From IMG/VR virus record IMGVR_UViG_2802429245_000013: DNA of 45,041 nucleotides; one strand, written 5' to 3'. The notes beneath the pieces were generated by a model, which was given only the letters and a program-made list of their open reading frames with translations, searched no databases and had not been told where the DNA came from. Origin of the DNA: a virus (lineage: Duplodnaviria > Heunggongvirae > Uroviricota > Caudoviricetes). Positions within the stretch are counted from its first letter, which is position 1. Each line of letters opens with the position of its first letter. The position numbers and the translations under genes are program-made. Below are positions 2,710 through 44,307 of this stretch, piece after piece.

Positions 2710-3456
2710 TTATTTTGCCTGTTTCATTTTTTCCACCCTCTCAAGCATTCTTTTTACATTTGATGGAGGATAGTTAAATTCATCGCCGTCTCCAAAAGAA
2801 ATTTTTATAGGCTTCATTTTCATAACCAATTCTTTCAGAACCGCTTTACCAATTTCAGTTTTTGGTACTATAAAACCATTTCCATACAAGCATGATTTAT
2901 AAGTTTTATAATATTCACCATTAATCAAAATTGGTGGATACTCTAATGGTCCATCAATTTGCACTGAATTATCGCAAAATCCATTGCCTTTAGATTTTGA
3001 AGCAATAAAAATAGCTATTGTCCCATCATCGCCATACATCAGGAATCTATTTTTACTAACACCTTCCAGTGGAGGTAATATTATCAGTGCACCATCAATA
3101 TACCATTCAGCGTAATTCTTTGATTCATTGATTATGTTCTCATTAATTTCATTTAAAGATGAATATTCCCTGAATGCATTAGAATACCATTGTCGAACAC
3201 ATGATTCTGTTTTGCACTTCTCTCTTTCATTCCACAAGTCTGAAACAATTTTTCTAAAAGCTTTCTTATCAGCGCTCTCTAACTTTACTTTTTGATATAA
3301 AGAATTTAATTTATCATCAAGTTCAGATAATTCACTGTTGCTGCAAATTAACTTTTCAGAATATGATTTAGCTTTCGAGCAATCAAAAGATACCGCATTC
3401 GCAGTTCCGATTTGTAATAAAAAAGCAAACACTACAAATAATTTAAACTTAATCAT
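2710..3456 (-). CDS. Secreted moron protein: signal peptide plus DUF1311/LprI-like Cys-containing N-terminal domain, unknown C-terminal domain
   Basis: ORF track 248 aa; N-terminal hydrophobic leader MIKFKLFVVFAFLLQIGTANA; motif CSKAKSYSEKLICSNSELSELDDKLNSLYQKV...C...C; strong RBS AAGGAG 7 nt before ATG; visibly AT-rich relative to flanks. Confidence 0.6.
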   Translation of the reverse strand: MIKFKLFVVFAFLLQIGTANAVSFDCSKAKSYSEKLICSNSELSELDDKLNSLYQKVKLESADKKAFRKIVSDLWNEREKCKTESCVRQWYSNAFREYSSLNEINENIINESKNYAEWYIDGALIILPPLEGVSKNRFLMYGDDGTIAIFIASKSKGNGFCDNSVQIDGPLEYPPILINGEYYKTYKSCLYGNGFIVPKTEIGKAVLKELVMKMKPIKISFGDGDEFNYPPSNVKRMLERVEKMKQAK

Positions 3457-3485
3457 CCGTAATCTCCTTAAAAACAGGAGATTAA

Positions 3486-3513
3486 ATTTTACCCATTCTT
3501 AATGTCCGTTCAA
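3486..3513 (-). promoter_or_regulatory. Candidate sigma70 promoter of the moron (TTGAAC-16-TAAAAT on minus strand)
   Basis: Minus-strand hexamers read from sequence: -35 TTGAAC (complement of 3508-3513), 16-nt spacer, -10 TAAAAT (complement of 3486-3491), about 25 nt upstream of the RBS. Confidence 0.4.
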
Positions 3514-3580
3514 GTTCATACTTTACAACCGCGCCCAGTTGAGTATGATTAAGCGCATGAGGCGTCGAAACCTCTTCTCA

Positions 3581-19900: not shown

Positions 19901-21229
19901 TTACAATTCCGCGTAATTACCGTGCGCGATGATCAATCCATAGGTGTAACAATCGAAAAGGTCATCAGCACGTTTATGCGCATCTTTGTCTGCCAGGTGG
20001 AACCCGGCGATTTGTTTTATGAGGTGGTTTGCGGTGGTGCGTTTGAATGAAACGGTCTTGTCGTAAGCCTCCCGGACGATTTTGCACATCCCCTGATAGT
20101 GGTAGCTGGATGCCATCACCGCCCGTTCGTCTTTGCCCTTGCTGGTTAGTGCCGATTTAATCGGCGTCATATCCCAGCCTTCGGTTTCCGCCTTCTGGTT
20201 GAGGATTGCCCCCATCGCGGCGTCTTCCATAAAAATACCCTGGCTGCCCAGACGCGGACGGCATAATTTCGCGAGGCGCTCGAGGTTGTCATAAACGCCG
20301 GGGATATACTCAGGAAGCAATGACGCTTTAATTTGCGTCACATCCCAGTCAATAATCGTCAGTTTTGGATCGTCCGAATACGTTGACTCATAAGAGAAAT
20401 ACACCACGCCAGTACCATCATTTTCGGTCCCGCCTTTCAGCGCCGTATCCATCACTGCGAAAATCATGTCGCAGTACGGCGGCATCTCAATTGGTTGACC
20501 GTCCACCAGCAGCTTATCGACATCGAGTAACGCGTCTTTGGACCAGTCTACGAACTCTGCAAGATATTCCTGCTGCCAGACGCGCGGATCGGATTTCTTC
20601 TCCGTTTCCTCCAGTTCTTCTTTCGGAATATACGGATTCGATGAAGTTGGCGCATGGTGCATAACAAATCCCAGGGATTCATCGTGGCATATCGCGTAGA
20701 AAAAATTGCTCTCGTCGATACCGTTTGGTGTGGAAAATACCCACGCACAGCCGCGGTAATCGACAAGCGTCGGGCGTATCGCTCGGGGCCAGATTTCCTC
20801 GAGCATTTCCGGCGATTTAGTGAATGCGGCCTCATCAATCAGCACAGCGTGATATTTACGCCCACGCCCGGCCAGTTTGTTATTGTCCGTTACCCAAAAG
20901 TCGATGCGCCCCCCATTACGGAGAATGATGCGCTTTTCATTTTTTGACTGACTGAGGATCAGCGGTTGCAGAACGGCGCTAATTTCATCCCAGATTTCCT
21001 GGTACTGGCGGTATTGCGCGGTAAAAATCCCCACCCTACCCGCGATAAGTTGCCCGGTGGTAGGAACGGCAAATTTCCGCGTAGCGAAACTGGTAGCGAT
21101 GTTCACCAGCATCACCGTTTTACCCCAGCGACGACCACAGCATACCGCGTGGAAGCGTTCCTCTATTGCCGCCGTCCATGCAGCTATTTGCCCCTCATGA
21201 GGTTTTGGGAGGTAGATTTCAATCGACAT
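19901..21229 (-). CDS. Terminase large subunit, 442 aa
   Basis: Walker A-like CCGRRWGKT and Walker B-like VLIDEAA motifs in ORF translation; followed by portal. Confidence 0.75.
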   Translation of the reverse strand: MSIEIYLPKPHEGQIAAWTAAIEERFHAVCCGRRWGKTVMLVNIATSFATRKFAVPTTGQLIAGRVGIFTAQYRQYQEIWDEISAVLQPLILSQSKNEKRIILRNGGRIDFWVTDNNKLAGRGRKYHAVLIDEAAFTKSPEMLEEIWPRAIRPTLVDYRGCAWVFSTPNGIDESNFFYAICHDESLGFVMHHAPTSSNPYIPKEELEETEKKSDPRVWQQEYLAEFVDWSKDALLDVDKLLVDGQPIEMPPYCDMIFAVMDTALKGGTENDGTGVVYFSYESTYSDDPKLTIIDWDVTQIKASLLPEYIPGVYDNLERLAKLCRPRLGSQGIFMEDAAMGAILNQKAETEGWDMTPIKSALTSKGKDERAVMASSYHYQGMCKIVREAYDKTVSFKRTTANHLIKQIAGFHLADKDAHKRADDLFDCYTYGLIIAHGNYAEL

Positions 21230-22523: not shown

Positions 22524-23433
22524 CCGGCACGCTGCCAGAGACTCGACTTTCGAATACGGAATCATTTGTCACCCCCATTGATATGCAGGGTGTCTTCTTC
22601 CTGTATTTTTCGTGAAGGATTTTTACTGCAGCGTTGTTCCAGGTGACCTGATGGTGAATGCGTTTATGGCTGGCACCCATCAGTGAGATTTTTACGCACG
22701 ACGGCGCATACATGACGGAGTAAAAACTTTTAACGTAGGTTCCGGAATCCAGATACAGCTCGGTCATTCCGCCGCTGTTTTTCTGCGTCTGTTTCTGCCC
22801 TAACTGGACAGCACCGATCGTCATAAACAATTCACCACGGCGACCGAGATTCGTGTACGTATTCACATCCTCGTTAATGCGCCCCATGAATGAGAACGGT
22901 CGCTCGACCGAACAGATAAAGCTGTTCATTGCCTTGCGTTTCACCCATGAAGCATGGCCGCCATTGTCACCAAGAAAATCCCCGCCCTGCGACATAGCGA
23001 TGGAAAGAGCAGGTATTGATTCGTAATACGCCAGCATTTCAGAAAGGATCGCATCCAGTTTCCTTATCGGAAAATAGGCCTGGTCATAGTTGCGATCCAC
23101 CCGAAACTGAAACTCGTGATAATCATCATCGAGCTGAATGAAGTATTTACACCCGACCTTTTTTGCCAGGTCAAAACTGGCATTACGGGCGTAAAAAATT
23201 GAGCGACGATCACCGAAATTATCGGCTTCGTCAAAACGACTGGCGATATCGGCTTTGGAAAACACCAGCACCTGTTCACCAAATTCTGCTATGTACTGAT
23301 GCCGGGTTTTATCTTCATCATCAACGACGATAAAAATTTTCCCGGTATAGCCAGCACGACGCAAAGTCCGGTAAGTCAGAACTTTGTCCGGTCGCCCGTG
23401 AGTCAGAATAAAGGCGCAAAAATCATCACGCAT
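22501..23433 (-). CDS. Unknown enzyme-like protein, about 310 aa, possible GT-A-fold DxD-type transferase
   Basis: ORF 22501..23451 trimmed to ATG at 23433 with RBS GGGAGG; strand-DxD-like YFIQLDDDYHEF and N-terminal CAFILTHGRP...KIFIVVDDED suggest a Rossmann-like nucleotide-dependent transferase; start overlaps ParB-like stop by 8 nt. Confidence 0.35.
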   Translation of the reverse strand: MRDDFCAFILTHGRPDKVLTYRTLRRAGYTGKIFIVVDDEDKTRHQYIAEFGEQVLVFSKADIASRFDEADNFGDRRSIFYARNASFDLAKKVGCKYFIQLDDDYHEFQFRVDRNYDQAYFPIRKLDAILSEMLAYYESIPALSIAMSQGGDFLGDNGGHASWVKRKAMNSFICSVERPFSFMGRINEDVNTYTNLGRRGELFMTIGAVQLGQKQTQKNSGGMTELYLDSGTYVKSFYSVMYAPSCVKISLMGASHKRIHHQVTWNNAAVKILHEKYRKKTPCISMGVTNDSVFESRVSGSVPDDCTTNS

Positions 23434-24214
23434 ATTCCTCCTCCCCGCCATGCATGATCTCCACCATGCACTGCGTCATCCGGACAAAACCATTTTCGAT
23501 GGCTTGCTGATAATCAATGATCACCAGCGCCGACTCTTCGAAAAGCGCCTGAACTTCAGCGGGCGCATGGGCGTAATAGTCCGCAATTCTGCTGAAATTA
23601 AACACTGTGTGGCGTTCTGCCGCACACAGGAGGAATTTTTCGATATCAGGATCAAGGGACGCCGAACGTATCCGGCTGACCAGCTCCTGAGTTTTCGTAT
23701 CGTCGTACAGTTCGCCGATATCCGGTTTATCGCCTGACGGCTCATAAACAGGTGTATCAATTTTCGTCGTGTACTGCTCCTCCTCATTTCCGGTACCTGG
23801 CAAAACATCCGTCAACAGTTCATCAATTTCTGTTGGGCTGAATCCTGTCAGGGAGATATCAAAATCAGCATTGATTAGCTCCGACAGTTCCACCCGTAAC
23901 AGTTCTTCATCCCAGCCAGCGTTGAGCGGCAGGCGATTATCTGCCAGGCGGTACGCCTTTTTCTGATCATCCGTCAGGCCAGACAGAACAATGACCGGAA
24001 CCGAATCCATTTTGAGCATTTCAGCCGCCATCACGCGACCGTGACCAGCAATAATTTCGCCCTTTTCGTCAATCAGCACCGGATTGGTCCAGCCGAATTG
24101 CTTAATGCTTTCTACCAGTTGTGCCACCTGCTCAGGGCTGTGTGTCCTGGCGTTGTGCGCATACGGAGACAGTTTTTGCAACGGGCGATAGACGATCTTT
24201 AATTTCTCGCTCAT
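23426..24214 (-). CDS. ParB N-terminal domain (ParB/sulfiredoxin-like) protein, 262 aa
   Basis: ORF translation has ParB-N hallmark ...NPVLIDEKGEIIAGHGRVMAA... near N-terminus. Confidence 0.6.
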   Translation of the reverse strand: MSEKLKIVYRPLQKLSPYAHNARTHSPEQVAQLVESIKQFGWTNPVLIDEKGEIIAGHGRVMAAEMLKMDSVPVIVLSGLTDDQKKAYRLADNRLPLNAGWDEELLRVELSELINADFDISLTGFSPTEIDELLTDVLPGTGNEEEQYTTKIDTPVYEPSGDKPDIGELYDDTKTQELVSRIRSASLDPDIEKFLLCAAERHTVFNFSRIADYYAHAPAEVQALFEESALVIIDYQQAIENGFVRMTQCMVEIMHGGEEEYA

Positions 24215-24332
24215 ACAGCCTCGCTTGATGAATAAAAAAGCTCACTAACAGCCAGTGCGCTGGGTGCGCGGCGGGTGCTGTTGGTGAGCCTGGCATTATC
24301 GCAGCCCCTCACTGAAGGGCTGCTGTAATGCC

Positions 24333-24521
24333 TTAACCCAGTTTCGCTCGCACCAGAGCATCTTTTGCTTCAAGCAATTTACGTAACCCAGCCGACTTTT
24401 CCGGACCGTCTGGCAAAGATTCATCCATTACTCTTGCCAGATCACCAATTGGCTTACTCACTTCCTTTAACGAAGTCGGAAGATGCTCATAATTGAAATA
24501 TTTCATAATTGGCGATTCCAT
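24333..24521 (-). CDS. Hypothetical protein, 62 aa
   Basis: ORF track; RBS AAGGAG favours second Met. Confidence 0.3.
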   Translation of the reverse strand: MESPIMKYFNYEHLPTSLKEVSKPIGDLARVMDESLPDGPEKSAGLRKLLEAKDALVRAKLG

Positions 24522-24553
24522 CATTTCTCCTTAGTAAAACAATTATCAGGCGA

Positions 24554-24736
24554 TCAGTTCTGCATACACTGCCGGACACCGTCGACAATTTCACAGACCT
24601 GAGAAGCTGTATCGAAAAGCTGGCGCGCCTTATCCAGGCTGACGCATCCCACCAATAAAAAAGGCACCAGTATCGCTACCAGTGCCCATTTCGCTGCCGT
24701 TCGCGGCATTCTGTGTGTCCAGTGTTTTCGACTCAT
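24554..24736 (-). CDS. Lysis-associated lipoprotein (lipobox LLVGC), about 60 aa; o-spanin-like position
   Basis: ORF 24554..24808 trimmed to Met after endolysin stop: MSRKHWTHRMPRTAAKWALVAILVPFLLVGCVSL... Confidence 0.4.
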   Translation of the reverse strand: MSRKHWTHRMPRTAAKWALVAILVPFLLVGCVSLDKARQLFDTASQVCEIVDGVRQCMQN

Positions 24737-24750
24737 AACTCGCCCGGCTA

Positions 24751-25128
24751 TCAGCGTTTCAATTGGAAGTGCGGCCCGTCCTTCAGCGTTTTCCAGTCCC
24801 CGCCCCATTCGATGGCGACTCCCAGCTCTGCGGCAGCCTGCTTAAATGCCTGTGCGATTTTCTCGTACAGAGGCCAGTCCCATGACACCTGGCTGCCAAC
24901 ATAAGCCACAACATCCACAGCATCACCGGTCAGGTGGCGGCTGTTCATGGTCTGGCTTTTCCCTTCCGCGACCAGCTGTTTCTGGCGTTCTTTCGTGCGC
25001 AGCCCTTCCGTAATACCGAAATCAACCTCCGTCAATTCCAGCGCACGGCGAACGACAGCAACCAGCTGTGGTTTGACGCCCTCCAGATTTTTTTCACTGC
25101 GACGACTGAATCTGAATTTACCCGACAT
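24751..25128 (-). CDS. Endolysin, L-alanyl-D-glutamate peptidase (peptidase M15 / VanY-like)
   Basis: Motifs ...SRHLTGDAVDVVAYVG...W...DGPHFQL typical of M15 phage endopeptidases; ATG at 25128 with RBS GGAGG 5 nt upstream (ORF-track first codon is GTG). Confidence 0.75.
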   Translation of the reverse strand: MSGKFRFSRRSEKNLEGVKPQLVAVVRRALELTEVDFGITEGLRTKERQKQLVAEGKSQTMNSRHLTGDAVDVVAYVGSQVSWDWPLYEKIAQAFKQAAAELGVAIEWGGDWKTLKDGPHFQLKR

Positions 25129-25130
25129 GC

Positions 25131-25406
25131 TCACCTCCGGAATGAAAGGATTTTTGAAACGTTCCCGCGTGCACGTATCACCAGCACGCAGAACAGCAGA
25201 TTAAGCCCCACCGCCAGCCAGTTCGCCGCTAACGGGCGACCGCACAGATAGCTGAGGGGTGCAAAGGCATACAGCAGCATCAGCAGCCAGGCCAGCCATG
25301 ACATCAGCGGTTTGTGTCTGGAATCACGGCGACGATAAAAAAAGAGCGTCAGCACGATAACCGTGCATAACGCCACATTCAGCAATCCGGAAAGGTTACT
25401 TAACAT
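25131..25406 (-). CDS. Small membrane protein (holin/antiholin-like), about 91 aa
   Basis: ORF 25131..25460 trimmed to Met with RBS GGAGG; two to three hydrophobic segments; stop overlaps endolysin start. Confidence 0.45.
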   Translation of the reverse strand: MLSNLSGLLNVALCTVIVLTLFFYRRRDSRHKPLMSWLAWLLMLLYAFAPLSYLCGRPLAANWLAVGLNLLFCVLVIRARGNVSKILSFRR

Positions 25407-25788
25407 TGCCGCCTCCTCCGCCCCGCAGGCGGGAGAACAGGCCGGACACCAGCGATGCAATATCCTGCTGGTGGATGAACGAGAGAATCTTCACCGACAC
25501 CACTGACACCAGTACTGCACACAATGCGTCGACAGGCGCGCTGTCAAATCCTGTGTGCTTTACCAGCCAGGCAGCCAGAACCTCTGCGCCCAGCACGCCA
25601 ATAATGAACGACACCAGAAAATGCGCCGCCACACGCCAGGCTGAAAGCGCCTGCGGCATCGTTGCCACAAATAACGCCCCGGCGAACGCACCAAACACAA
25701 TCCCGAAATCCGTTCCGGTAAACAGCCCGTACACCGTCGCCCCACCGAGCGCCGCAGCCGTGCCGGAACCGGATAAGGGTTCAGACAT
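25396..25788 (-). CDS. Holin-like multi-TM protein, about 131 aa
   Basis: ORF 25396..25860 trimmed to Met with RBS AGGAG; Gly/Ala-rich transmembrane segments; first gene of lysis cassette. Confidence 0.5.
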   Translation of the reverse strand: MSEPLSGSGTAAALGGATVYGLFTGTDFGIVFGAFAGALFVATMPQALSAWRVAAHFLVSFIIGVLGAEVLAAWLVKHTGFDSAPVDALCAVLVSVVSVKILSFIHQQDIASLVSGLFSRLRGGGGGNVK

Positions 25789-25802
25789 ACTTTTTTCTCC
25801 TG

Positions 25803-25829
25803 TAAATAAAAAAGGGCCACCAGCGGCCC
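25803..25829 (-). terminator. Hairpin plus U-tract immediately upstream of holin RBS (minus strand)
   Basis: Stem GGGCC/GGCCC with 6-nt loop; on minus strand followed by TTTTTTATTT. Confidence 0.45.
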
Positions 25830-26107
25830 GTAAAAAACACCCCGTCAAAAGCACCGGCATCCGCAGATGCCCTTTGCGTGGCGTTATTTGATGCGCGCCA
25901 GATGTGGCGCAAAGAAATGAAATAAGACTTATCGGAAATTAAGGTTAATTTGAGGATTTAAACCACTTCTGAAGCTTAGTAGTATGAACATGTCCCCGGA
26001 AGGGGGCCAATACTTATTATTCTTCATGGACTTTGTCCCGCGGTCTTAATCCGACGACCGCGCTACTTTTCACCCTCTCGCAAATTGCTATCCAAAGGAC
26101 GTTGTCC

Positions 26108-26140
26108 CACGAGTATTCCTGGATGCTCGTGTCTTTTTTC
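26108..26140 (+). terminator. Plus-strand terminator-like hairpin (CACGAG...CTCGTG then TCTTTTTTC)
   Basis: Read from sequence; convergent with minus-strand terminator 20 nt away. Confidence 0.35.
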
Positions 26141-26154
26141 GTCCTGAGAAAGGA

Positions 26155-26180
26155 ATAAAAAAAACCGCCAGATATGGCGG
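26155..26180 (-). terminator. Rho-independent terminator downstream of the tRNA pair (minus strand)
   Basis: Hairpin CCGCCAGATATGGCGG; on minus strand followed by TTTTTTTT. Confidence 0.55.
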
Positions 26181-26546
26181 TTGGTCAATGCAAGGGATGA
26201 ATTTTTTTAATTGTTATTAAACCGAGGCGTCGGGTGCCTCCCGAAGTATTCCGTGCTGTATGGATACTGTGGTTTCCCGCTAAACCGACTCTTTAAACCA
26301 CCCTCGCACTGAGGTGCGCCTCTTTGGTGCGATTTACAACACCAGAATGATGCATCACCGACCCTGCCAGGAAATACAAAATCTCCACCGATAATGCACC
26401 ATTCTGCTGTCGTAAAAAAATCAGCACTGAGGCTACACCTGGCCTCAAATCATAGCCAGAGAACAGAATGCTTTTTCAAAACAACCTGCTCCCACGTAAT
26501 AAAAAATACGCCAGTGCCGCAATACAATAAGGCTTGTTTCAAATGC

Positions 26547-26621
<75 letters not shown>

Positions 26622-26624
26622 ATA

Positions 26625-26700
<76 letters not shown>

Positions 26701-27066: not shown

Positions 27067-27522
27067 TTATTGGCTTTCTCCGCATAACGCCAATTTCATT
27101 GGTATATACAGAATGTGTTCAGCAACACCCAACCATGCATCAATGCGATTTCTGCAAGTTTTCAAGCTCCAGCCAGGGCGATACTTATTTAACTGTTGTG
27201 CCATTTTCAGCTTACTCATCCCCCGCCCTTCATATCTTTGTCGGAGGATAAAAATCAATCCAGGATGCTCTGCCATCACTTCACTAATTACCCGGTCAAT
27301 ACATAACGCCTCGGCATCAGTGCAATGGGACAGCCAGCTTTTTTGCTTACTGTCGATCATCTCACGCAAAAATGCTTCCAGCTCTGGCTTCTCTATTCCC
27401 GCTTTTTTCATTCTGCGCAGAGCTTCATTGATGGCTGTTTTCGTCAATTTTTTGGATGCCAGCAACTGGTTGAACATATTCCCCGTCTTACCGCCACCAA
27501 TATACGACCAGCGCCCCCACAT
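27067..27522 (-). CDS. Late-gene antiterminator Q-like protein, about 151 aa
   Basis: Position (last early gene before late terminator and lysis genes); ORF 27067..27729 trimmed because its 5-prime part overlaps the upstream gene; assignment is positional plus weak sequence impression. Confidence 0.45.
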   Translation of the reverse strand: MWGRWSYIGGGKTGNMFNQLLASKKLTKTAINEALRRMKKAGIEKPELEAFLREMIDSKQKSWLSHCTDAEALCIDRVISEVMAEHPGLIFILRQRYEGRGMSKLKMAQQLNKYRPGWSLKTCRNRIDAWLGVAEHILYIPMKLALCGESQ

Positions 27523-27605
27523 ACGCAGTTTTCCCTGAATCCAGACACTTTCCAGCGTGGTGAGACGAAGGTGTTCTCCGCTTTTTCCTGTATTCGTTGG
27601 GTAAA

Positions 27606-27896
27606 TCACAAATATCCCTCCTTTCTCCAGATTTCTTGTGTGCGAAAAACACCTTCTGCATGCATCAGGCGTAATTCTTCTTTGGTGTAATCGCTGGTTT
27701 TTACCCGCCCGTCGATTAAATCGTGGCACGAGCTACAGGCAATCGCGGCCTGCATATCGTGTGGCTTTATCGCTGTTCCGCACGTTCCCGCCAGTCGGTA
27801 ATGCGCCAGCACAGACGTTTCGGGATTGTGATTGCAGTAGCCAGGAATTCTGACCTGGCACATCTGGCCCCGCGCCGCTTTACGTAAATCCACCAT
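27606..27896 (-). CDS. YbcO-like Cys-rich nin-region protein, 96 aa
   Basis: ORF track; Cys pattern C..C....C...CSSCH; nin-region position upstream of Q. Confidence 0.5.
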   Translation of the reverse strand: MVDLRKAARGQMCQVRIPGYCNHNPETSVLAHYRLAGTCGTAIKPHDMQAAIACSSCHDLIDGRVKTSDYTKEELRLMHAEGVFRTQEIWRKEGYL

Positions 27897-29008: not shown

Positions 29009-29164
29009 TTACTCCTCAGGTTCGTAAGCTGTGAAGACAGCGACCTCCGTCTGGCCGGTTCGGATTCGTACCTCGCAGAGGTCTTTCCTCGTTACCAGTG
29101 CCGTCACTATGACGGTTAAACAGATGACGATCAAGGCGATTAACATCGCCTTTTGCTGCTTCAT
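29009..29164 (-). CDS. hok: Hok/Gef family type I toxin (HokD/RelF-like), 51 aa
   Basis: Translation MKQQKAMLIALIVICLTVIVTALVTRKDLCEVRIRTGQTEVAVFTAYEPEE is a canonical Hok-family sequence (single TM, conserved C-terminal periplasmic part). Confidence 0.85.
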   Translation of the reverse strand: MKQQKAMLIALIVICLTVIVTALVTRKDLCEVRIRTGQTEVAVFTAYEPEE

Positions 29165-29222
29165 AGCCTGCTTCTCCTTGCCTTTCGGCACGCAAGAGGC
29201 TAATCTTCAGTTGTCGAGACAT
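29016..29222 (-). CDS. mok: Mok-like overlapping reading frame (translation coupled to hok)
   Basis: ORF 29016..29312 in a different frame overlapping hok almost completely and ending 7 nt from hok stop, as in hok/mok/sok loci; start uncertain. Confidence 0.4.
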   Translation of the reverse strand: MSRQLKISLLRAERQGEAGYEAAKGDVNRLDRHLFNRHSDGTGNEERPLRGTNPNRPDGGRCLHSLRT

Positions 29223-29435
29223 AAGACTGGCCTCACTTCGATTTATAGTCGGGTGGGGCTTTTCTCTATCTGCCTTTTGGTGTTCATGCCCGAGGCAGAT
29301 AGCCTCAAGCACCCGCAGTAATTCTACTTAACTCTCCTTTTCCCGCAAACCGTTTTTATCCCCATCGGCAAATCGAATACACAACCAGCGCCACCGCCAG
29401 TGCAATTCCTACCGTTGTGAATGCTTCAGGCCAGG

Positions 29436-38209: not shown

Positions 38210-41200
38210 ATGAGCACAAAACCACTCTTCCTGTTACGGAAAGCGAAAAAATCATCCGGTGAACCTGACGTCGTCCTGTGGGCAAGCGACGATTTTGAAT
38301 CGACCTGTGCCACTCTGGACTACCTGCTCGTTAAGTCAGGTAAAAAACTGAGCAACTATTTTAAAGCTGTTGCCACAAATTTTCCTGTCGTTAATGACCT
38401 TCCCCCTGAAGGTGAGATCGATTTTACCTGGAGTGAACGCTATCAACTCAACAAAGACTCCATGACCTGGGAACTAAAACCGGGAGCAGCGCCAGACGAC
38501 GTTCACCATCAGGAGGATGCACCGGAAACCGAAGAACCGACGGGAGGCCAGGAAGAAAACGCGCAGGCAGACGCCCACGAGGATTGCCAGGATTGCGAAG
38601 TCTCTGTAGCCACTTTGCGGTTCACACAGCGTCTTCTGCACATTTTTACGTATGCAGCCGGGGATCGAAAATACCTGCATCATGCCACCCGTGAACAACG
38701 CAAACACATTACTGCTCTTGAGATGGATCAGGAAAACAGCTATGTCCAGAATCTGCTGTTGGCCATACGCAGCATGGCAGAACCGACAACTCTGGATAAT
38801 GCCGCCCTGCTCCGCCTGACTGATGCAATTAAGGCAGTGTTCTCTATCACGAAAAAACATCAGCCCTATGAATTTAAGAATTTCATTTCAGCCTGGCTGG
38901 ATACCGAACACATTGATCGCGGTCTTCTGACAAAAGAATGGCGAAAAGGGAATCGTGTTTCACGCATCACTCGCACGGCTTCCGGTGCTAATGCTGGCGG
39001 CGGGAACCTCACCGATCGCGGCGAAGGTTTCGTCCACGATCTGACGTCACTGGCGCGCGATGTAGCCACTGGCGTACTGGCCCGTTCAATGGACGTGGAC
39101 ATCTATAACCTTCATCCGGCACACGCTAAACGCATTGAGGAAATTATCGCTGAAAATAAACCGCCCTTTTCTGTTTTCCGCGACAAATTCATCACCATGC
39201 CTGGCGGGCTGGATTATTCCCGCGCCATCGTGGTTGCGTCCGTGAAAGAAGCACCAATTGGGATCGAGGTCATCCCCGCACACGTCACTGAATATCTGAA
39301 CAAAGTACTGACTGAAACCGATCATGCCAACCCTGATCCGGAAATCGTGGATATTGCCTGCGGTCGCTCCTCGGCCCCGATGCCGCAGCGAGTAACAGAA
39401 GAAGGAAAACAGGACGATGAAGAAAAACCACAACCATCTGGCGCAATGGCAGATGAACAGGCAACGGCTGAAACAGTGGAACCGAATGCAACTGAACATC
39501 ATCAGAACACGCAGCCGCTGGATGCTCAGTCACAGGTAAATTCTGTTGATGCGAAATATCAGGAACTGCGGGCAGAACTCCATGAAGCCCGGAAAAACAT
39601 TCCATCAAAAAATCCTGTCGATGCCGATAAATTGCTTGCTGCATCACGTGGTGAATTTGTTGACGGAATTAGCGACCCGAACGATCCGAAATGGGTTAAG
39701 GGGATCCAGACTCGCGATTCTGTGTACCAGAACCAGCCAGAAACGGAAAAAATCAGCCCGGATGCGAAACAACCTGAGCCAGTAGTGCAACAGGAACCGG
39801 AAATAGTCTGCAATGCCTGCGGTCAGACTGGCGGGGATAACTGCCCTGACTGTGGTGCGGTGATGGGCGACGCAACGTATCAGAAAACCTTTAATGAAGA
39901 AAATCAGAATGAATATCAGGAAAAAGGTCTGGAGGAAATGGAAGGCGCTGAACATCCGCACAATGAGAATGCTGGCAGCGATCCGCATCGCGATTGCAGT
40001 GATGAAACTGGCGAAGCGTCAGCTCCTGTAGCAACTGAAATCATGTGGCCGTCATATTTCGAGCCAGGCCGCTATGAAAACCTCCCGAACGAGGTTTATC
40101 ACTCCGCCAACGGAATAAGCAGCACGATGCTGAAGGATGCCCGTATCAGCCTGATGTATTACCACGGGAGGCACATTGCCGGAACTATTCCGAACGAGGA
40201 AAGTGATGCACTGCTGCGTGGGCGGATCATTCACAGCTATGTTCTGGAAACGGATAAATTCGCTGATGAATATGCCATTCCGGTACCGGTTCCTGAATAT
40301 GTGGTTACTACTTCTAACGAACTGATCGCCATCATTAAAAAACACAATGCCAGTCTGCCAGCACTGATGACACCAGAGCAGATGAAAGAGTGGATCGAAA
40401 GCTACAACAGCACTCTTATACAGCCACTGTCTGTAAGTGCTGGGGCCGAAGAAACAGGCATCCTTTACGGTTCACTTCCGGTGGAATTTCGGCGTATTCC
40501 TGAGGGGGAAAAACACACAGCATCAGCAATGAAAGCCTGTATTAAAGAATACAACGCAAGCCTCCCTCCTCTGTTGAAAACCAGTGGAGCACGGGAGCAG
40601 CTTCTGGATCAAATTGAAACTGTAGACCCAGAACTGGCAAAAAAAGAACGTGCTAAATCGTTGCCTTACAACATCAGTGGCACAAAAGAGCAATTAACCG
40701 AAATCGCACGGAAAATTCGCCCGGAACTGGTGACACTGGAGGACTGGCAAAAACGCCAGCAAGAAGAAAACGCCGGGAAAACGTTTATCAGTCCGGATAT
40801 GTATGAACAGGCAAAAAATATTCACGCGGCACTGCAAAACAATACCGATGCAGCAAGGCTACTCAACCACCCGGATCGCAAATCTGAAATCAGCTATTTC
40901 GGGTTTGATGAAGAAACCGGGCTGGAAATCAGGGTCCGCCCTGATATCGAAATCCGGCTGCCATACGAAAGCATTTGCGCTGACGTGAAGTCAGTCAGCC
41001 TCGGTTATGTGCGGCAGGAACGACTTAAAGATCGCCTGCACCTTGAAATTATTGAGCGTGATTATCACCTCAGCGCCGCAATGTATTGCGATGTGGCAAA
41101 CCTGGACAAATTTTTCTGGATCTTCGTCAACAAAGATGTTGGCTATCACTGGGTGGCAGTCGTGGAAGCCTCGCAGGAACTCCTGGAGCTTGGTCGACAG

Positions 41201-41335
41201 GAATATCGCCGGACGCTACGCCAGATAAACGAAGCCCTAGAGACAAACAACTGGCCAGCACCTATTACCGAAAGTTACACCGACGAATTAAACGACTTTG
41301 ATCTTCGTCGTCTTGAAGCACTGCATCTGGCTTAA
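38210..41335 (+). CDS. recE: RecE-like exonuclease VIII, 1041 aa, with C-terminal PD-(D/E)XK (YqaJ/lambda-exo-type) nuclease domain
   Basis: N-terminus [26 protein letters not shown]... and central ...[30 protein letters not shown]... recognised as RecE; C-terminal ...RPDIEIRL...ADVKS... nuclease-like. Confidence 0.75.
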
Positions 41336-42438
41336 TGGAGAACCTGACCATGCAAAATACCAATATCATCACGACAGAGCAGACACCAAATACCATTTCT
41401 GCCAGTAACACTATTTTTAACGTTCAGGCGTTGACGCAACTTCAGGAAGTAGCCGGGTTGATGTCACAGGCCACCGTCACAGTTCCCGATCACCTTCGCG
41501 GAAAACCTGCCGACTGCATGGCAATTATCATGCAAGCCATGCAATGGGGCATGAACCCCTACGCTGTGGCTCAGAAAACACACCTGGTAAACGGAGTTCT
41601 GGGTTATGAAGCACAACTGGTTAACGCTGTGATCTCTAGCTCAAGTGCAATTGTAGGCCGCTTCCATTACAAGTACGAGGGAGACTGGGAGAAATGCTCT
41701 CGCACCCGAGTGGAGACCGTTAAGAAAACGGCCAAAGGAGGCGGAATCTATGAGAAAAAAGAAACGATCCCATGTTGGACCAGTGAAGATGAGTATGGTC
41801 TATCAGTTCGAGTGGGTGCAGTTCTTCGCAGTGAAAGTGAGATTACCTGGGGAGAACCGGTGTTTCTTTCCAGCGTGATTACGCGTAATTCTCCTTTATG
41901 GACCTCAAACCCGAAACAACAGCTCGCCTATCTGGCGTTGAAATACTGGGCTCGCCTTTATTGTCCTGACGTCATCCTGGGCGTGTATACCCCCGACGAA
42001 CTGGAAGAGCCACAGGAAAAAATCATCAATCCTGTGCCGGTACAGAATTATAGCGAGGTAAGCGAGCAGCGAACAGAAACCATCGAACAGCGTATTGACG
42101 AAGCGTGGATTGATGAATTCCGGCAGCGCGTCGAAAGCGCGGCCACGACTGAGGAAACCACTGCATTACGCCAAGAGATAGAGGATCAGAAAAACCAGAT
42201 CGGCGAATTCTTTGCCGAGCTTAAAGGAAAAGTGGTTCGGCGCCATCACCGTCTCAATGCTATTGCCAGTATCGAGAAGATGATAAATGACCTGCCTTCA
42301 TCAGGTGATCCAGAAGCAGAACAAAAATTTACTGCTCTGGAAAATACGCTGAATGCTGCACGACCACATCTGGGTGAATTATATGAGGCGTATAAAACGA
42401 CACTGACAGATATAAAACCAGAATATATCAGCTCCTAA
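41335..42438 (+). CDS. RecT/Redbeta-type single-strand annealing protein, 367 aa
   Basis: Immediately downstream of recE with overlapping stop/start (TAATG); recombinase partner position; N-terminus does not match the K-12 RecT sequence as I remember it. Confidence 0.55.
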   Translation: MENLTMQNTNIITTEQTPNTISASNTIFNVQALTQLQEVAGLMSQATVTVPDHLRGKPADCMAIIMQAMQWGMNPYAVAQKTHLVNGVLGYEAQLVNAVISSSSAIVGRFHYKYEGDWEKCSRTRVETVKKTAKGGGIYEKKETIPCWTSEDEYGLSVRVGAVLRSESEITWGEPVFLSSVITRNSPLWTSNPKQQLAYLALKYWARLYCPDVILGVYTPDELEEPQEKIINPVPVQNYSEVSEQRTETIEQRIDEAWIDEFRQRVESAATTEETTALRQEIEDQKNQIGEFFAELKGKVVRRHHRLNAIASIEKMINDLPSSGDPEAEQKFTALENTLNAARPHLGELYEAYKTTLTDIKPEYISS

Positions 42439-42983: not shown

Positions 42984-43265
42984 ATGAATCTTGTGACACT
43001 CAAAACGTGGGGAAAACTCAGATATCCGGATAACCCACCATCAATATCAACGCTGAGACGATGGGCAAGGAATGGAAACATTTATCCTGCACCTGAACTA
43101 CACGGGAGGAGTTACAGGGTGGTTCCGGAGGCTTTCTATATCAACCCAAATAAGGTTGATACCGATATAACACACCATCAACCTAATGGGCGACAAGGGA
43201 GAGACAGTCCGTTACTGGAGAAGTTAAAACATGCAGCGGAAAAAATACGATCCCAATTTGCCTAA
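42984..43265 (+). CDS. xis: Excisionase (Xis), about 93 aa
   Basis: ORF 42909..43265 trimmed to Met with RBS AAGAGG; ...TLKTWGKLRYPDNPPSISTLRRWARNGNIYPAPEL... resembles lambda Xis; overlaps int start by 35 nt. Confidence 0.6.
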   Translation: MNLVTLKTWGKLRYPDNPPSISTLRRWARNGNIYPAPELHGRSYRVVPEAFYINPNKVDTDITHHQPNGRQGRDSPLLEKLKHAAEKIRSQFA

Positions 43266-44307
43266 AAACTTAACATATCGAAGGAGGGACAAAGCATATT
43301 ACTGGCGCAACCCTCTGACGAAAGAAGAATTTACACTAGGTAAAATTTCAAGGAGAGATGCAGTAGCGCAGGCAATTGAAGCAAATCATTATATATACAA
43401 AAACTACTCTCCTGCAGCCTTAATTGAAAAGCTTAAAGGGTTCGACTCATTTACTATGGCAGACTGGATTGAACGTTACAAAACGATTCTTATAAGGAGA
43501 AAAGTGTCCAGAAATACTTATAAAATTCGGATAAATCAACTGGAGACAATAAAAGAAAAATTGGGAGGAATTTTACTGACAGAAATAACCACTCGCCATA
43601 TTGCCGAGTTTCTTGATTTGTGGATTGAAGGAGGGAAAAACACAATGGCAGGATCAATGCGTTCTGTGTTGTCTGATATGTTTCGCGAGGCCATTGTTGA
43701 AGGACGTATATCTCAAAATCCAGTAACGCCAACAAGAGCACCGAAAATAGTAGTTACAAGAGAACGACTGAAACTAAAGACATACAACTGCATCAGGGAG
43801 GCAGCAGATCAACTTCCGGCATGGTTCCCATTAGCTATGGATTTAGCCCTTGTAACAGGACAACGTCGCGAAGACATAACGAATATGCGGTTCAGTGATA
43901 TTTATGATGATCGTCTCCACATCAGGCAAATTAAGACAGGAATGATGATTGCTATCCCCCTGTCACTCAGCCTTCCTGTCGCTGGTCTACGGCTTGGTAC
44001 AGTAGTTGAACGGTGCCGCCTGGTAAGCCGGGGAGATTATCTAATCAGTGCCGGGATTAGAAAAAACAGCCCTGACGGCAGCATTCACCCGGATGGCCTG
44101 ACAAAAAAATTTGTCGCAGCCAGAAAATTAACAGGTATCCAGTTCAGTGAAAACCCACCAACTTTTCACGAGATCAGAAGTCTGGCTGGACGATTGTACA
44201 AAGAAACATGTGGAGAAGAATTTGCCCAGCGCCTACTTGGTCACACATCGGAGAAGACAACAAAAATGTATCTTGATGAGCGAGAAAAAACGTACTTACT
44301 GCTCTGA
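43231..44307 (+). CDS. int: Integrase, lambda-family tyrosine recombinase, 358 aa
   Basis: N-terminus aligns with lambda Int by eye ([38 protein letters not shown] versus MGRRRSHERRDLPPNLYIRNNGYYCYRDPRTGKEFGLG); C-terminal [11 protein letters not shown]...[13 protein letters not shown] catalytic region. Confidence 0.85.

Follow-up and report, generated by a model that had tools for sequence, protein, structure and literature searches.

Breaching of the outer membrane is, among the steps of phage lysis, the one understood least. In two-component spanins, a small outer-membrane lipoprotein with a lipobox (o-spanin) is paired with a type-II inner-membrane protein (i-spanin), whose gene embeds, overlaps or adjoins that of the lipoprotein, and the two proteins together span the periplasm. 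Unimolecular spanins are represented by gp11 of phage T1, and the disruptin gp28 of phage phiKT provides the precedent for a single peptide that performs the outer-membrane step and complements lambda Rz/Rz1 mutants. In about 13% of the phages that infect Gram-negative bacteria, a spanin cannot be recognised, and 31 of 677 surveyed genomes contain a lone lipoprotein gene (Kongari et al., 2018). The present analysis concerns a lone lipoprotein gene in the lysis cassette of a caudoviricete sequence of 45,041 nucleotides (nt), IMG/VR record IMGVR_UViG_2802429245_000013, which is referred to here over its whole length as the window. The gene, at positions 24554-24736 on the minus strand, encodes a prolipoprotein of 60 amino acids (aa), MSRKHWTHRMPRTAAKWALVAILVPFLLVGCVSLDKARQLFDTASQVCEIVDGVRQCMQN, which matches the PHROG family phrog_7528 with E=7.1e-39 over positions 1-60 of 60. 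Based on the comparison of related loci, we lean slightly towards the interpretation that this lipoprotein is a single-gene replacement of Rz/Rz1, which would carry out the outer-membrane step of lysis without a phage-encoded inner-membrane partner.

The strongest evidence for a role in the outer-membrane step is the mutually exclusive, gene-for-gene replacement of Rz/Rz1 by the lipoprotein gene. For a comparison of the spanin slot, TB60 (phrog_1115), a small membrane protein that mostly forms a block with TB44 (phrog_4906), a transmembrane (TM) protein of 44 aa, served as the seed for retrieving 80 loci. The lipoprotein gene without Rz/Rz1 was found in 42 of these loci and Rz without the lipoprotein gene in 35, nearly always with an embedded Rz1; neither was found in three, and no locus contained both, with less than 450 nt of downstream sequence available in four of the lipoprotein-free loci. 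In those of the three neither-type loci that were checked, there was no lipoprotein gene within the fetched flank. The DNA homology between the two cassette types covers TB60 and most of TB44 and stops 30-40 nt short of the gene that comes next, namely Rz in Rz-type cassettes and the lipoprotein gene in lipoprotein-type ones. Judged from these loci, the lipoprotein and Rz/Rz1 share one slot and are mutually exclusive. In a published census of Shiga toxin (Stx) phages, Rz is present in 277 of 279 genomes and the pham of metallopeptidase endolysins in only two; we infer that the two phages lacking Rz are the two with this pham, a point on which the paper is silent.

Two further observations were made around this slot. 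In many lambdoid cassettes, the small membrane proteins TA57 (phrog_4493), TB60 and TB44 are encoded in the space that separates the endolysin gene from the spanin slot (for example L024 3826-3999, L036 3504-3996, L142 1468-1829 and L137 1468-1781). In addition, a sequence of 25-60 nt that follows the signal-anchor-release (SAR) endolysin gene in Rz-type cassettes recurs in lipoprotein-type cassettes immediately behind the lipoprotein gene, as seen at L142 1344-1403 and L097 2034-2093, and may be a recombination linker for module exchange.

The preliminary description of the window, made from the sequence by eye, had claimed that no i-spanin gene embeds or precedes the lipoprotein gene, and the searches bear this out: the alternative frames are closed, and neither a type-II candidate nor an Rz/Rz1 homologue was detected. 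Embedding of the lipoprotein gene is excluded, because both other same-strand frames (+1 and +2) are interrupted by stops across the gene in 53 of 53 alleles. An Rz-like open reading frame (ORF) overlapping the lipoprotein gene in an alternative frame, which the preliminary description had named as the finding that would contradict it, was sought and not found. A topology scan of the whole window for type-II membrane ORFs returned no credible candidate, just alternative-frame junk within other genes, and no conserved ORF of this kind lies within -1600 to +900 nt across 94 related loci. Searches by tblastn with lambda-type Rz/Rz1 from related cassettes gave no match in the window, and none of 136 lipoprotein loci contains an Rz/Rz1 homologue by the same method. 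When compared with two-component spanins, the window therefore has, within or beside the cassette, a small lipobox-bearing lipoprotein of the outer membrane, which corresponds to the o-spanin, and has no embedding, overlapping or adjoining type-II gene; the combined periplasmic span is also lacking, as the mature part comprises 30 residues. TA57, TB60 and TB44, which about 40% of the relatives carry upstream of their lipoprotein gene, were considered as non-canonical partners and rejected, since they are absent from the window and equally precede ordinary Rz/Rz1.

A spanin pair has been published for the Stx2e phage phiP27, whose lysis region is related to that of the window. SpaninDB lists it as a "separated" two-component spanin that is a singleton in both families, and with 62 periplasmic residues for both proteins together it is the shortest among 528 systems (Kongari et al., 2018). 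The accompanying tables place the i-spanin at 20348-20542 of the phiP27 record (64 aa, 32 periplasmic residues) and the o-spanin at 20706-20861 (51 aa, 30 periplasmic residues, of which Jpred predicts 25 to be helical) (Kongari et al., 2018). This o-spanin is the orthologue of the lipoprotein in the window. The i-spanin is an ORF with a TTG start (3334-3528, minus strand, in our excerpt L001 of NC_003356) that lies within an insert of about 470 bp between the endolysin and lipoprotein genes, and this insert is absent from the window and from most relatives. The ORF is antisense to a 90-aa ORF of phrog_36812 (E=5e-20) and has no PHROG or Pfam match of its own. In two relatives its frame is damaged, being shortened to 36 aa in L049 and containing two stops within the supposed transmembrane domain (TMD) in L093, and the 90-aa gene is intact in both (67% identity in L093). 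Because it is antisense to a conserved gene and broken in these relatives, the i-spanin call for phiP27 is probably an antisense annotation artefact, and the 64-aa ORF, which the window does not contain, was rejected as a partner of the lipoprotein. Together with the mutually exclusive use of the Rz/Rz1 slot, this supports the earlier suggestion that outer-membrane disruption may work differently here. In the GenBank record of phiP27 the lipoprotein gene is unannotated, and L32 overlaps it in the wrong frame.

The lipoprotein gene starts 14 nt past the endolysin stop in the same orientation. Its description as the gene of a 60-aa lipoprotein agrees with the full-length phrog_7528 match and with the lipobox LVGC, which corresponds to the consensus [LVI][ASTVI][GAS]C and is preceded by a basic n-region and a hydrophobic h-region. 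The signal part, MSRKHWTHRMPRTAAKWALVAILVPFLLVG, ends directly before the cleavage Cys C31, and the mature peptide of 30 aa is CVSLDKARQLFDTASQVCEIVDGVRQCMQN. It contains no Pro, in line with the observation in the preliminary description that the protein is not Pro-rich; in lambda Rz1, 10 of 41 residues are Pro. By the +2 rule of the Lol system, a lipoprotein with Val at +2, as here, is predicted to be sorted to the outer membrane. With all nested starts tried, this is the sole credible lipobox ORF across the 45 kb, the other match (29109-29321, plus strand) having an n-region charge of +1. The 60-aa form is taken as the correct gene model, because codon 1 is ATG in 69 of 69 alleles, as opposed to 58 of 69 for codon 10, at which the models of 51 aa begin in SpaninDB and in certain records of the Prokaryotic Genome Annotation Pipeline (PGAP).

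Its substitution pattern identifies the ORF as a real gene under purifying selection. Over 53 distinct alleles, the ratio of nonsynonymous to synonymous polymorphism (pN/pS) is 0.19 overall, 0.25 in the signal part and 0.14 in the mature part. At the protein level, these values contradict the idea, which had come from a divergent alignment, of a signal peptide with higher conservation than the mature part. Among 20 diverse aligned members M1, L27, L28, G30, C31, C48 and C57 are invariant, and the lipobox and both Cys of the mature part stay unchanged even in members with as little as about 50% identity. With its 16 residues (codons 1-16, 24691-24736), the n-region of the signal peptide is unusually long; it is very basic, has the conserved sequence M-x-R-K-H-W-T-H-R-x-P-R, and is itself under purifying selection (pN 0.054 vs pS 0.197).

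The homologues of phrog_7528, which come from Escherichia, Salmonella, Citrobacter, Cronobacter and Yersinia, fall into 160 clusters at the level of 90% identity; a homologue from Lelliottia matches the family at 3.6e-16. It is a family of unknown function restricted to Enterobacterales, and the cluster names are all hypothetical or merely "lipoprotein". The family is small, since a profile search of 1.84 billion representatives gave 23 matches. The full-length ones are lipoproteins of 54-71 aa, shorter and longer ones being truncated, frameshifted or fused, and they have in common the pattern C-x16-C-x8/9-C in the mature part along with the conserved motif E-K-A-R...V-C...C. In complete E. 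coli genomes, the 183-nt gene occurs in 316 of 5426 at 496 places, with up to seven copies per genome, and is without exception annotated as hypothetical or left unannotated.

The gene contains a hairpin that resembles an intrinsic terminator, followed by a T-run, TTTTTTATT (24652-24687, minus strand), within the signal-peptide codons 17-28. The hairpin itself (24687-24662 on the coding strand) has an 11-bp stem with a GCGA loop, continues with UUUUUUAUU and is the top terminator-like site of the region. It is retained in 25 of 26 distinct variants, including those of Lelliottia and L095. Only 1% of synonymous recodings keep both an equally stable hairpin and the T-run, the synonymous diversity is 0.09 for codons 17-28 as opposed to 0.20 for the flanking codons, and two rare codons, ATA and GTA, are fixed. 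A candidate for a Q-type late antiterminator (27067-27729, minus strand; PF06576 DUF1133, E=5e-101; PF06530 Phage_antitermQ, E=4.7e-6) is encoded upstream of the tRNA genes and the lysis cassette and would let late transcription pass terminator-like sites. The hairpin, in combination with this antiterminator, may restrict the full-length product and the downstream late genes to antiterminated transcripts.

The position of the gene was surveyed mostly on IMG/VR contigs, which represent close relatives, with three loci from a scan of genome contigs; more distant members were obtained via the profile search. Of 89 close loci, 45 have the lipoprotein gene directly after an M15 endolysin gene and two directly after one of the GH108/PG_binding_3 type, and in the others variable inserts lie between the two genes, among them TB60 with TB44, a KilA-N gene, an HNH gene or the insert of the phiP27 type. 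In GH108-type cassettes, the lipoprotein gene shares 4 nt (ATGA) or about 20 nt with the end of the endolysin gene. The holins upstream of the lipoprotein gene show 30-100% identity to those of the window. Five distant members, at or below roughly 50% identity (P0135, P0140, P0125, P0130 and P0138), could be placed on contigs. In all five, the gene directly before that of the lipoprotein is the one next to the holin gene. It encodes an M15 or GH108 endolysin in four of them, and in P0130 this gene, of 131 aa, has no Pfam match and is only presumed to encode an endolysin. Their holins are Phage_holin_3_1 alone or holin_8 with holin_3_7, with three holin layouts accompanying the family as a whole, and their contexts are lambdoid and Mu-like, in one case beside GemA and Mor. 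No i-spanin was found in the loci of these five members. In every surveyed locus with enough upstream sequence the lipoprotein gene is downstream of the endolysin gene, directly so in about half, and in all relatives examined it is the final gene of the lysis module.

Functional phages carry the gene, which supports a role in lysis: phiP27, phiSTEC1575-Stx2k and vB_Apl-pPE4 are all phage genome records, two of them called complete genomes. In the last of these (L002, PP818812.1), deposited as an Actinobacillus phage, the E. coli-type lysis cassette is matched with 88% identity, and the lipoprotein gene is unannotated and follows a KilA-N insertion. The assignment of this phage to the host Actinobacillus pleuropneumoniae looks doubtful.

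The lipoprotein resembles several described proteins without belonging to their families. It has in common with the o-spanin Rz1 of lambda the consensus lipobox, a precursor of about 60 aa, periplasmic Cys residues, the position as the last gene of the cassette and the slot itself. However, its mature part is predicted to be helical and amphipathic and is free of proline, unlike the unstructured Pro-rich stretch of Rz1, and unlike in two-component spanins an i-spanin gene, be it embedded, overlapped or separated, is missing from the window. With Rz1, hhalign aligns the signal peptide only (probability 12%). The homologue from Lelliottia matches a PHROG of "Rz-like spanin" proteins with E=0.008 over residues 21-61 of its 68-aa form, a stretch that takes in the signal peptide and the greater part of the mature peptide; the match was rejected as too weak for homology. 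Like the unimolecular spanin gp11 of T1, the lipoprotein is encoded by a single gene beside the endolysin gene and has an N-terminal lipoprotein signal, but gp11-type spanins must reach across the periplasm, for which a mature part of 30 residues is short, and a C-terminal TMD is lacking: the sole hydrophobic segment comprises residues 13-37, and the C-terminus, ...VRQCMQN, is polar. The disruptin gp28 of phiKT is likewise a small peptide predicted to form an amphipathic helix and belongs to a lysis cassette without spanins; in contrast to the lipoprotein it is cationic, made in the cytosol and not lipidated, and phiKT has no lipobox ORF at all. Compared with what characterises a disruptin (a charge of at least about +4, amphipathicity and no export signal), the lipoprotein has a hydrophobic moment (muH) of 0.53, a net charge of -1 in the mature peptide and a signal peptide.

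Very small lipoproteins are also known from other contexts. The mature peptides of ColE1 Kil, the bacteriocin release protein (BRP) of pCloDF13 and entericidin B, with about 27-35 residues, permeabilise or lyse the envelope of E. coli. BRP genes stand at the end of an induced operon, and their products work via PldA, a phospholipase of the outer membrane. In contrast to these, the lipoprotein is located in a phage late operon and has a helical mature part containing Cys; a Pfam scan at E<=0.1 assigned it to no family, Lysis_col and Entericidin included, NCBIfam yielded none either, and a sequence search of the PDB returned nothing meaningful. T5 Llp and Cor of phi80 and N15 are, like it, small phage lipoproteins of the outer membrane with conserved Cys. 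Their genes adjoin receptor-binding or tail genes and their mature forms are about twice as long; no family match connects the lipoprotein with them, and it is linked to endolysin genes in all loci. By these membership comparisons, the lipoprotein is placed outside the two-component spanins, the unimolecular spanins, the disruptin and the colicin-release proteins.

The mature peptide can be described as a strongly amphipathic helix, with muH between 0.5 and 0.6 in all subfamilies and a net charge that ranges from -2 to +3 in the family. Along its hydrophobic face, which has an a/d/g heptad pattern, lie the two invariant Cys, 9-10 residues apart. As this spacing is too far for an intrahelical bond in a continuous helix, the Cys are likely to form disulfides between the molecules of a parallel dimer or oligomer. 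At about 4.5 nm as a helix, the mature part is too short for the inner membrane, and an action like that of a lipid-anchored disruptin or of a release protein is therefore proposed. The precursor would be made during Q-antiterminated late transcription, exported, lipidated at C31 and cleaved, and the Lol system would sort the product to the inner leaflet of the outer membrane on the basis of Val at +2. There, the 30-residue mature part would fold into its amphipathic helix and become linked by Cys into a covalent dimer or oligomer, as in Rz1, and would build up harmlessly as long as the peptidoglycan is intact. After holin and endolysin have removed the wall, the lipid-anchored helices would destabilise the outer membrane locally, either directly, like a tethered disruptin, or by perturbing the lipid asymmetry and thereby activating the host phospholipase PldA, as with the colicin-release lipoproteins. 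Tentatively, the lipoprotein might thus represent a further class of outer-membrane disruptor, namely a lone, lipid-anchored and disulfide-bonded amphipathic helix of 30 residues that has no inner-membrane partner and whose embedded terminator would limit the toxic full-length product to Q-antiterminated transcripts; we regard this as possible rather than probable.

Several points weigh against the replacement of Rz/Rz1 by the lipoprotein acting alone. The peptide is near-neutral, as opposed to the cationic disruptin, and the AlphaFold2 (AF2) model, one long helix, has a low confidence with a predicted local distance difference test (pLDDT) score of 64. Since 30 residues cannot reach the inner membrane, membrane fusion of the spanin type is excluded, and for the direct mechanism we know of no precedent among lipoproteins. 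The conserved polar residues E/D5, K6, R8 and K/R25 suggest a specific protein partner over non-specific insertion into the membrane. In addition, the gene is preceded by a weak Shine-Dalgarno (SD) sequence and contains the terminator-like hairpin, so that its expression could be low. The cluster representatives P0123, P0126, P0129 and P0134 are truncated or frameshifted, and loss is therefore tolerated at least in cryptic prophages. Finally, spanins in general are dispensable in shaken laboratory culture without Mg2+.

The conserved polar surface, together with the restriction to Enterobacterales, would fit a true o-spanin whose unrecognised inner-membrane partner is a long-reach envelope protein of the host or the periplasmic part of a holin. 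The hallmarks of an o-spanin are present in size, lipobox, periplasmic Cys and position, SpaninDB lists the phiP27 orthologue as one, and non-canonical i-spanin topologies are allowed for by Kongari et al. However, no one phage membrane protein co-occurs with the family, as it is accompanied by holin_8 with holin_3_7 at 30-100% identity or by Phage_holin_3_1 alone, and occurs with or without TA57, TB60 and TB44, which are not partners for the reason given above. The published i-spanin ORF of phiP27 is likewise of no help, being absent here, antisense to the phrog_36812 gene and interrupted by stops in L049 and L093, and the mature part is just 30 residues long. We therefore consider this explanation unlikely. 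The polar face would also be compatible with specific binding in a different task, in which a late envelope lipoprotein masks receptors, preventing loss of progeny to debris or excluding superinfection in the manner of T5 Llp and phi80 Cor, or tunes the timing of lysis. Small disulfide-containing phage lipoproteins of the outer membrane do block a receptor, as Llp and Cor do with FhuA, and the lipoprotein genes without a linked i-spanin in the 31 genomes of Kongari et al. could be read in this way. The gene travels, however, with endolysin genes and not with tail or receptor-binding genes, in lambdoid, phiP27-like and Mu-like backbones alike, and has no similarity to a Pfam, NCBIfam or PHROG family of known function, nor was a sigma-70-like promoter found in 24100-26600. 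As Rz/Rz1 is excluded from the same slot, these phages would then be left with no outer-membrane disruptor, and such a task is decidedly unlikely.

That the ORF is vestigial or selfish and has no role in the phage life cycle could be argued from the truncated or frameshifted alleles and from the many carriers that are prophages of unknown viability. It is very improbable in view of the low pN/pS, in particular of the mature part, the invariance of the lipobox and of both Cys over the identity range given above, the position kept in unrelated cassettes and the spread of the gene, in as many as seven copies, through E. coli genomes. A single-gene replacement of Rz/Rz1 thus continues to be the reading to which we incline.

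The remainder of the lysis cassette corresponds to the preliminary description, which had given the gene order and the types of protein; the four genes of the cassette (24554-25788) are all on the minus strand. The first is a holin candidate of 130 aa (25396-25788; PF16931 Phage_holin_8, E=2.2e-22; phrog_198 holin, E=1.2e-42) with about four hydrophobic segments and the SD sequence AGGAG 8 nt 5' of its ATG. Its 3' end is overlapped by the start of the gene for a second holin-like membrane protein of 91 aa with three TMDs (25131-25406; PF05449 Phage_holin_3_7, E=1.8e-21; phrog_217 holin, E=4.7e-37). The M15 endolysin that follows (24751-25134; PF13539 Peptidase_M15_4, E=9.4e-13; phrog_465 endolysin, E=1.7e-76) is VanY-like and of the L-Ala-D-Glu peptidase type, with an SxHxxGxAxD motif and a C-terminal His recognisable by eye, and has neither a signal peptide nor a TMD. 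Its ORF opens at GTG 25134, and ATG 25128, which sits 6 nt after GGAGG, is probably the start of a 125-aa product as annotated in relatives, where the corresponding 378-nt genes are described as endolysin, M15 metallopeptidase or L-alanyl-D-glutamate endopeptidase. Directly downstream of the lipoprotein gene, a soluble protein of 63 aa with a strong SD sequence is encoded (24333-24524, minus strand; phrog_1761/5120), which is outside the conserved lysis module because it is found in some relatives only. A ParB/Srx N-terminal-domain protein (23426-24214, minus strand; phrog_620) lies between the lysis module and the terminase genes.

The window is an stx-free, phiP27-like lambdoid prophage with an integrase gene (43231-44307), RecE/RecT (38210-42438) and a repressor region at about 35.5-36.4 kb. 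Past tRNA-Gly(TCC) and tRNA-Thr(TGT) (26547-26700), the lysis genes come first, then the gene of the ParB-like protein, and then those for terminase, head and tail. With phiP27, the lysis region shares 92.8% identity across 75% of a 1.8-kb query, and on the IMG/VR contig L010 all six tested proteins of the cassette region are 100% identical to those of the window. No stx genes are present between the tRNAs and the holin gene in the window, where about 750 bp (25789-26546) lack any ORF of notable size and include two sites that resemble terminators (26182-26163 and 25829-25814). This slot, which is empty of cargo here, holds stx2e in its phiP27 counterpart and, in other relatives, genes for TerB with DUF3927, for Stx2k or for LT-IIb.

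If the lipoprotein works alone, it would be a new minimal membrane-disrupting lipopeptide, and both SpaninDB and the pipelines used for finding spanins would need correction. It would then also have a bearing on toxin release, because Stx2e phages of the phiP27 type and Stx2k phages have this cassette beside stx.

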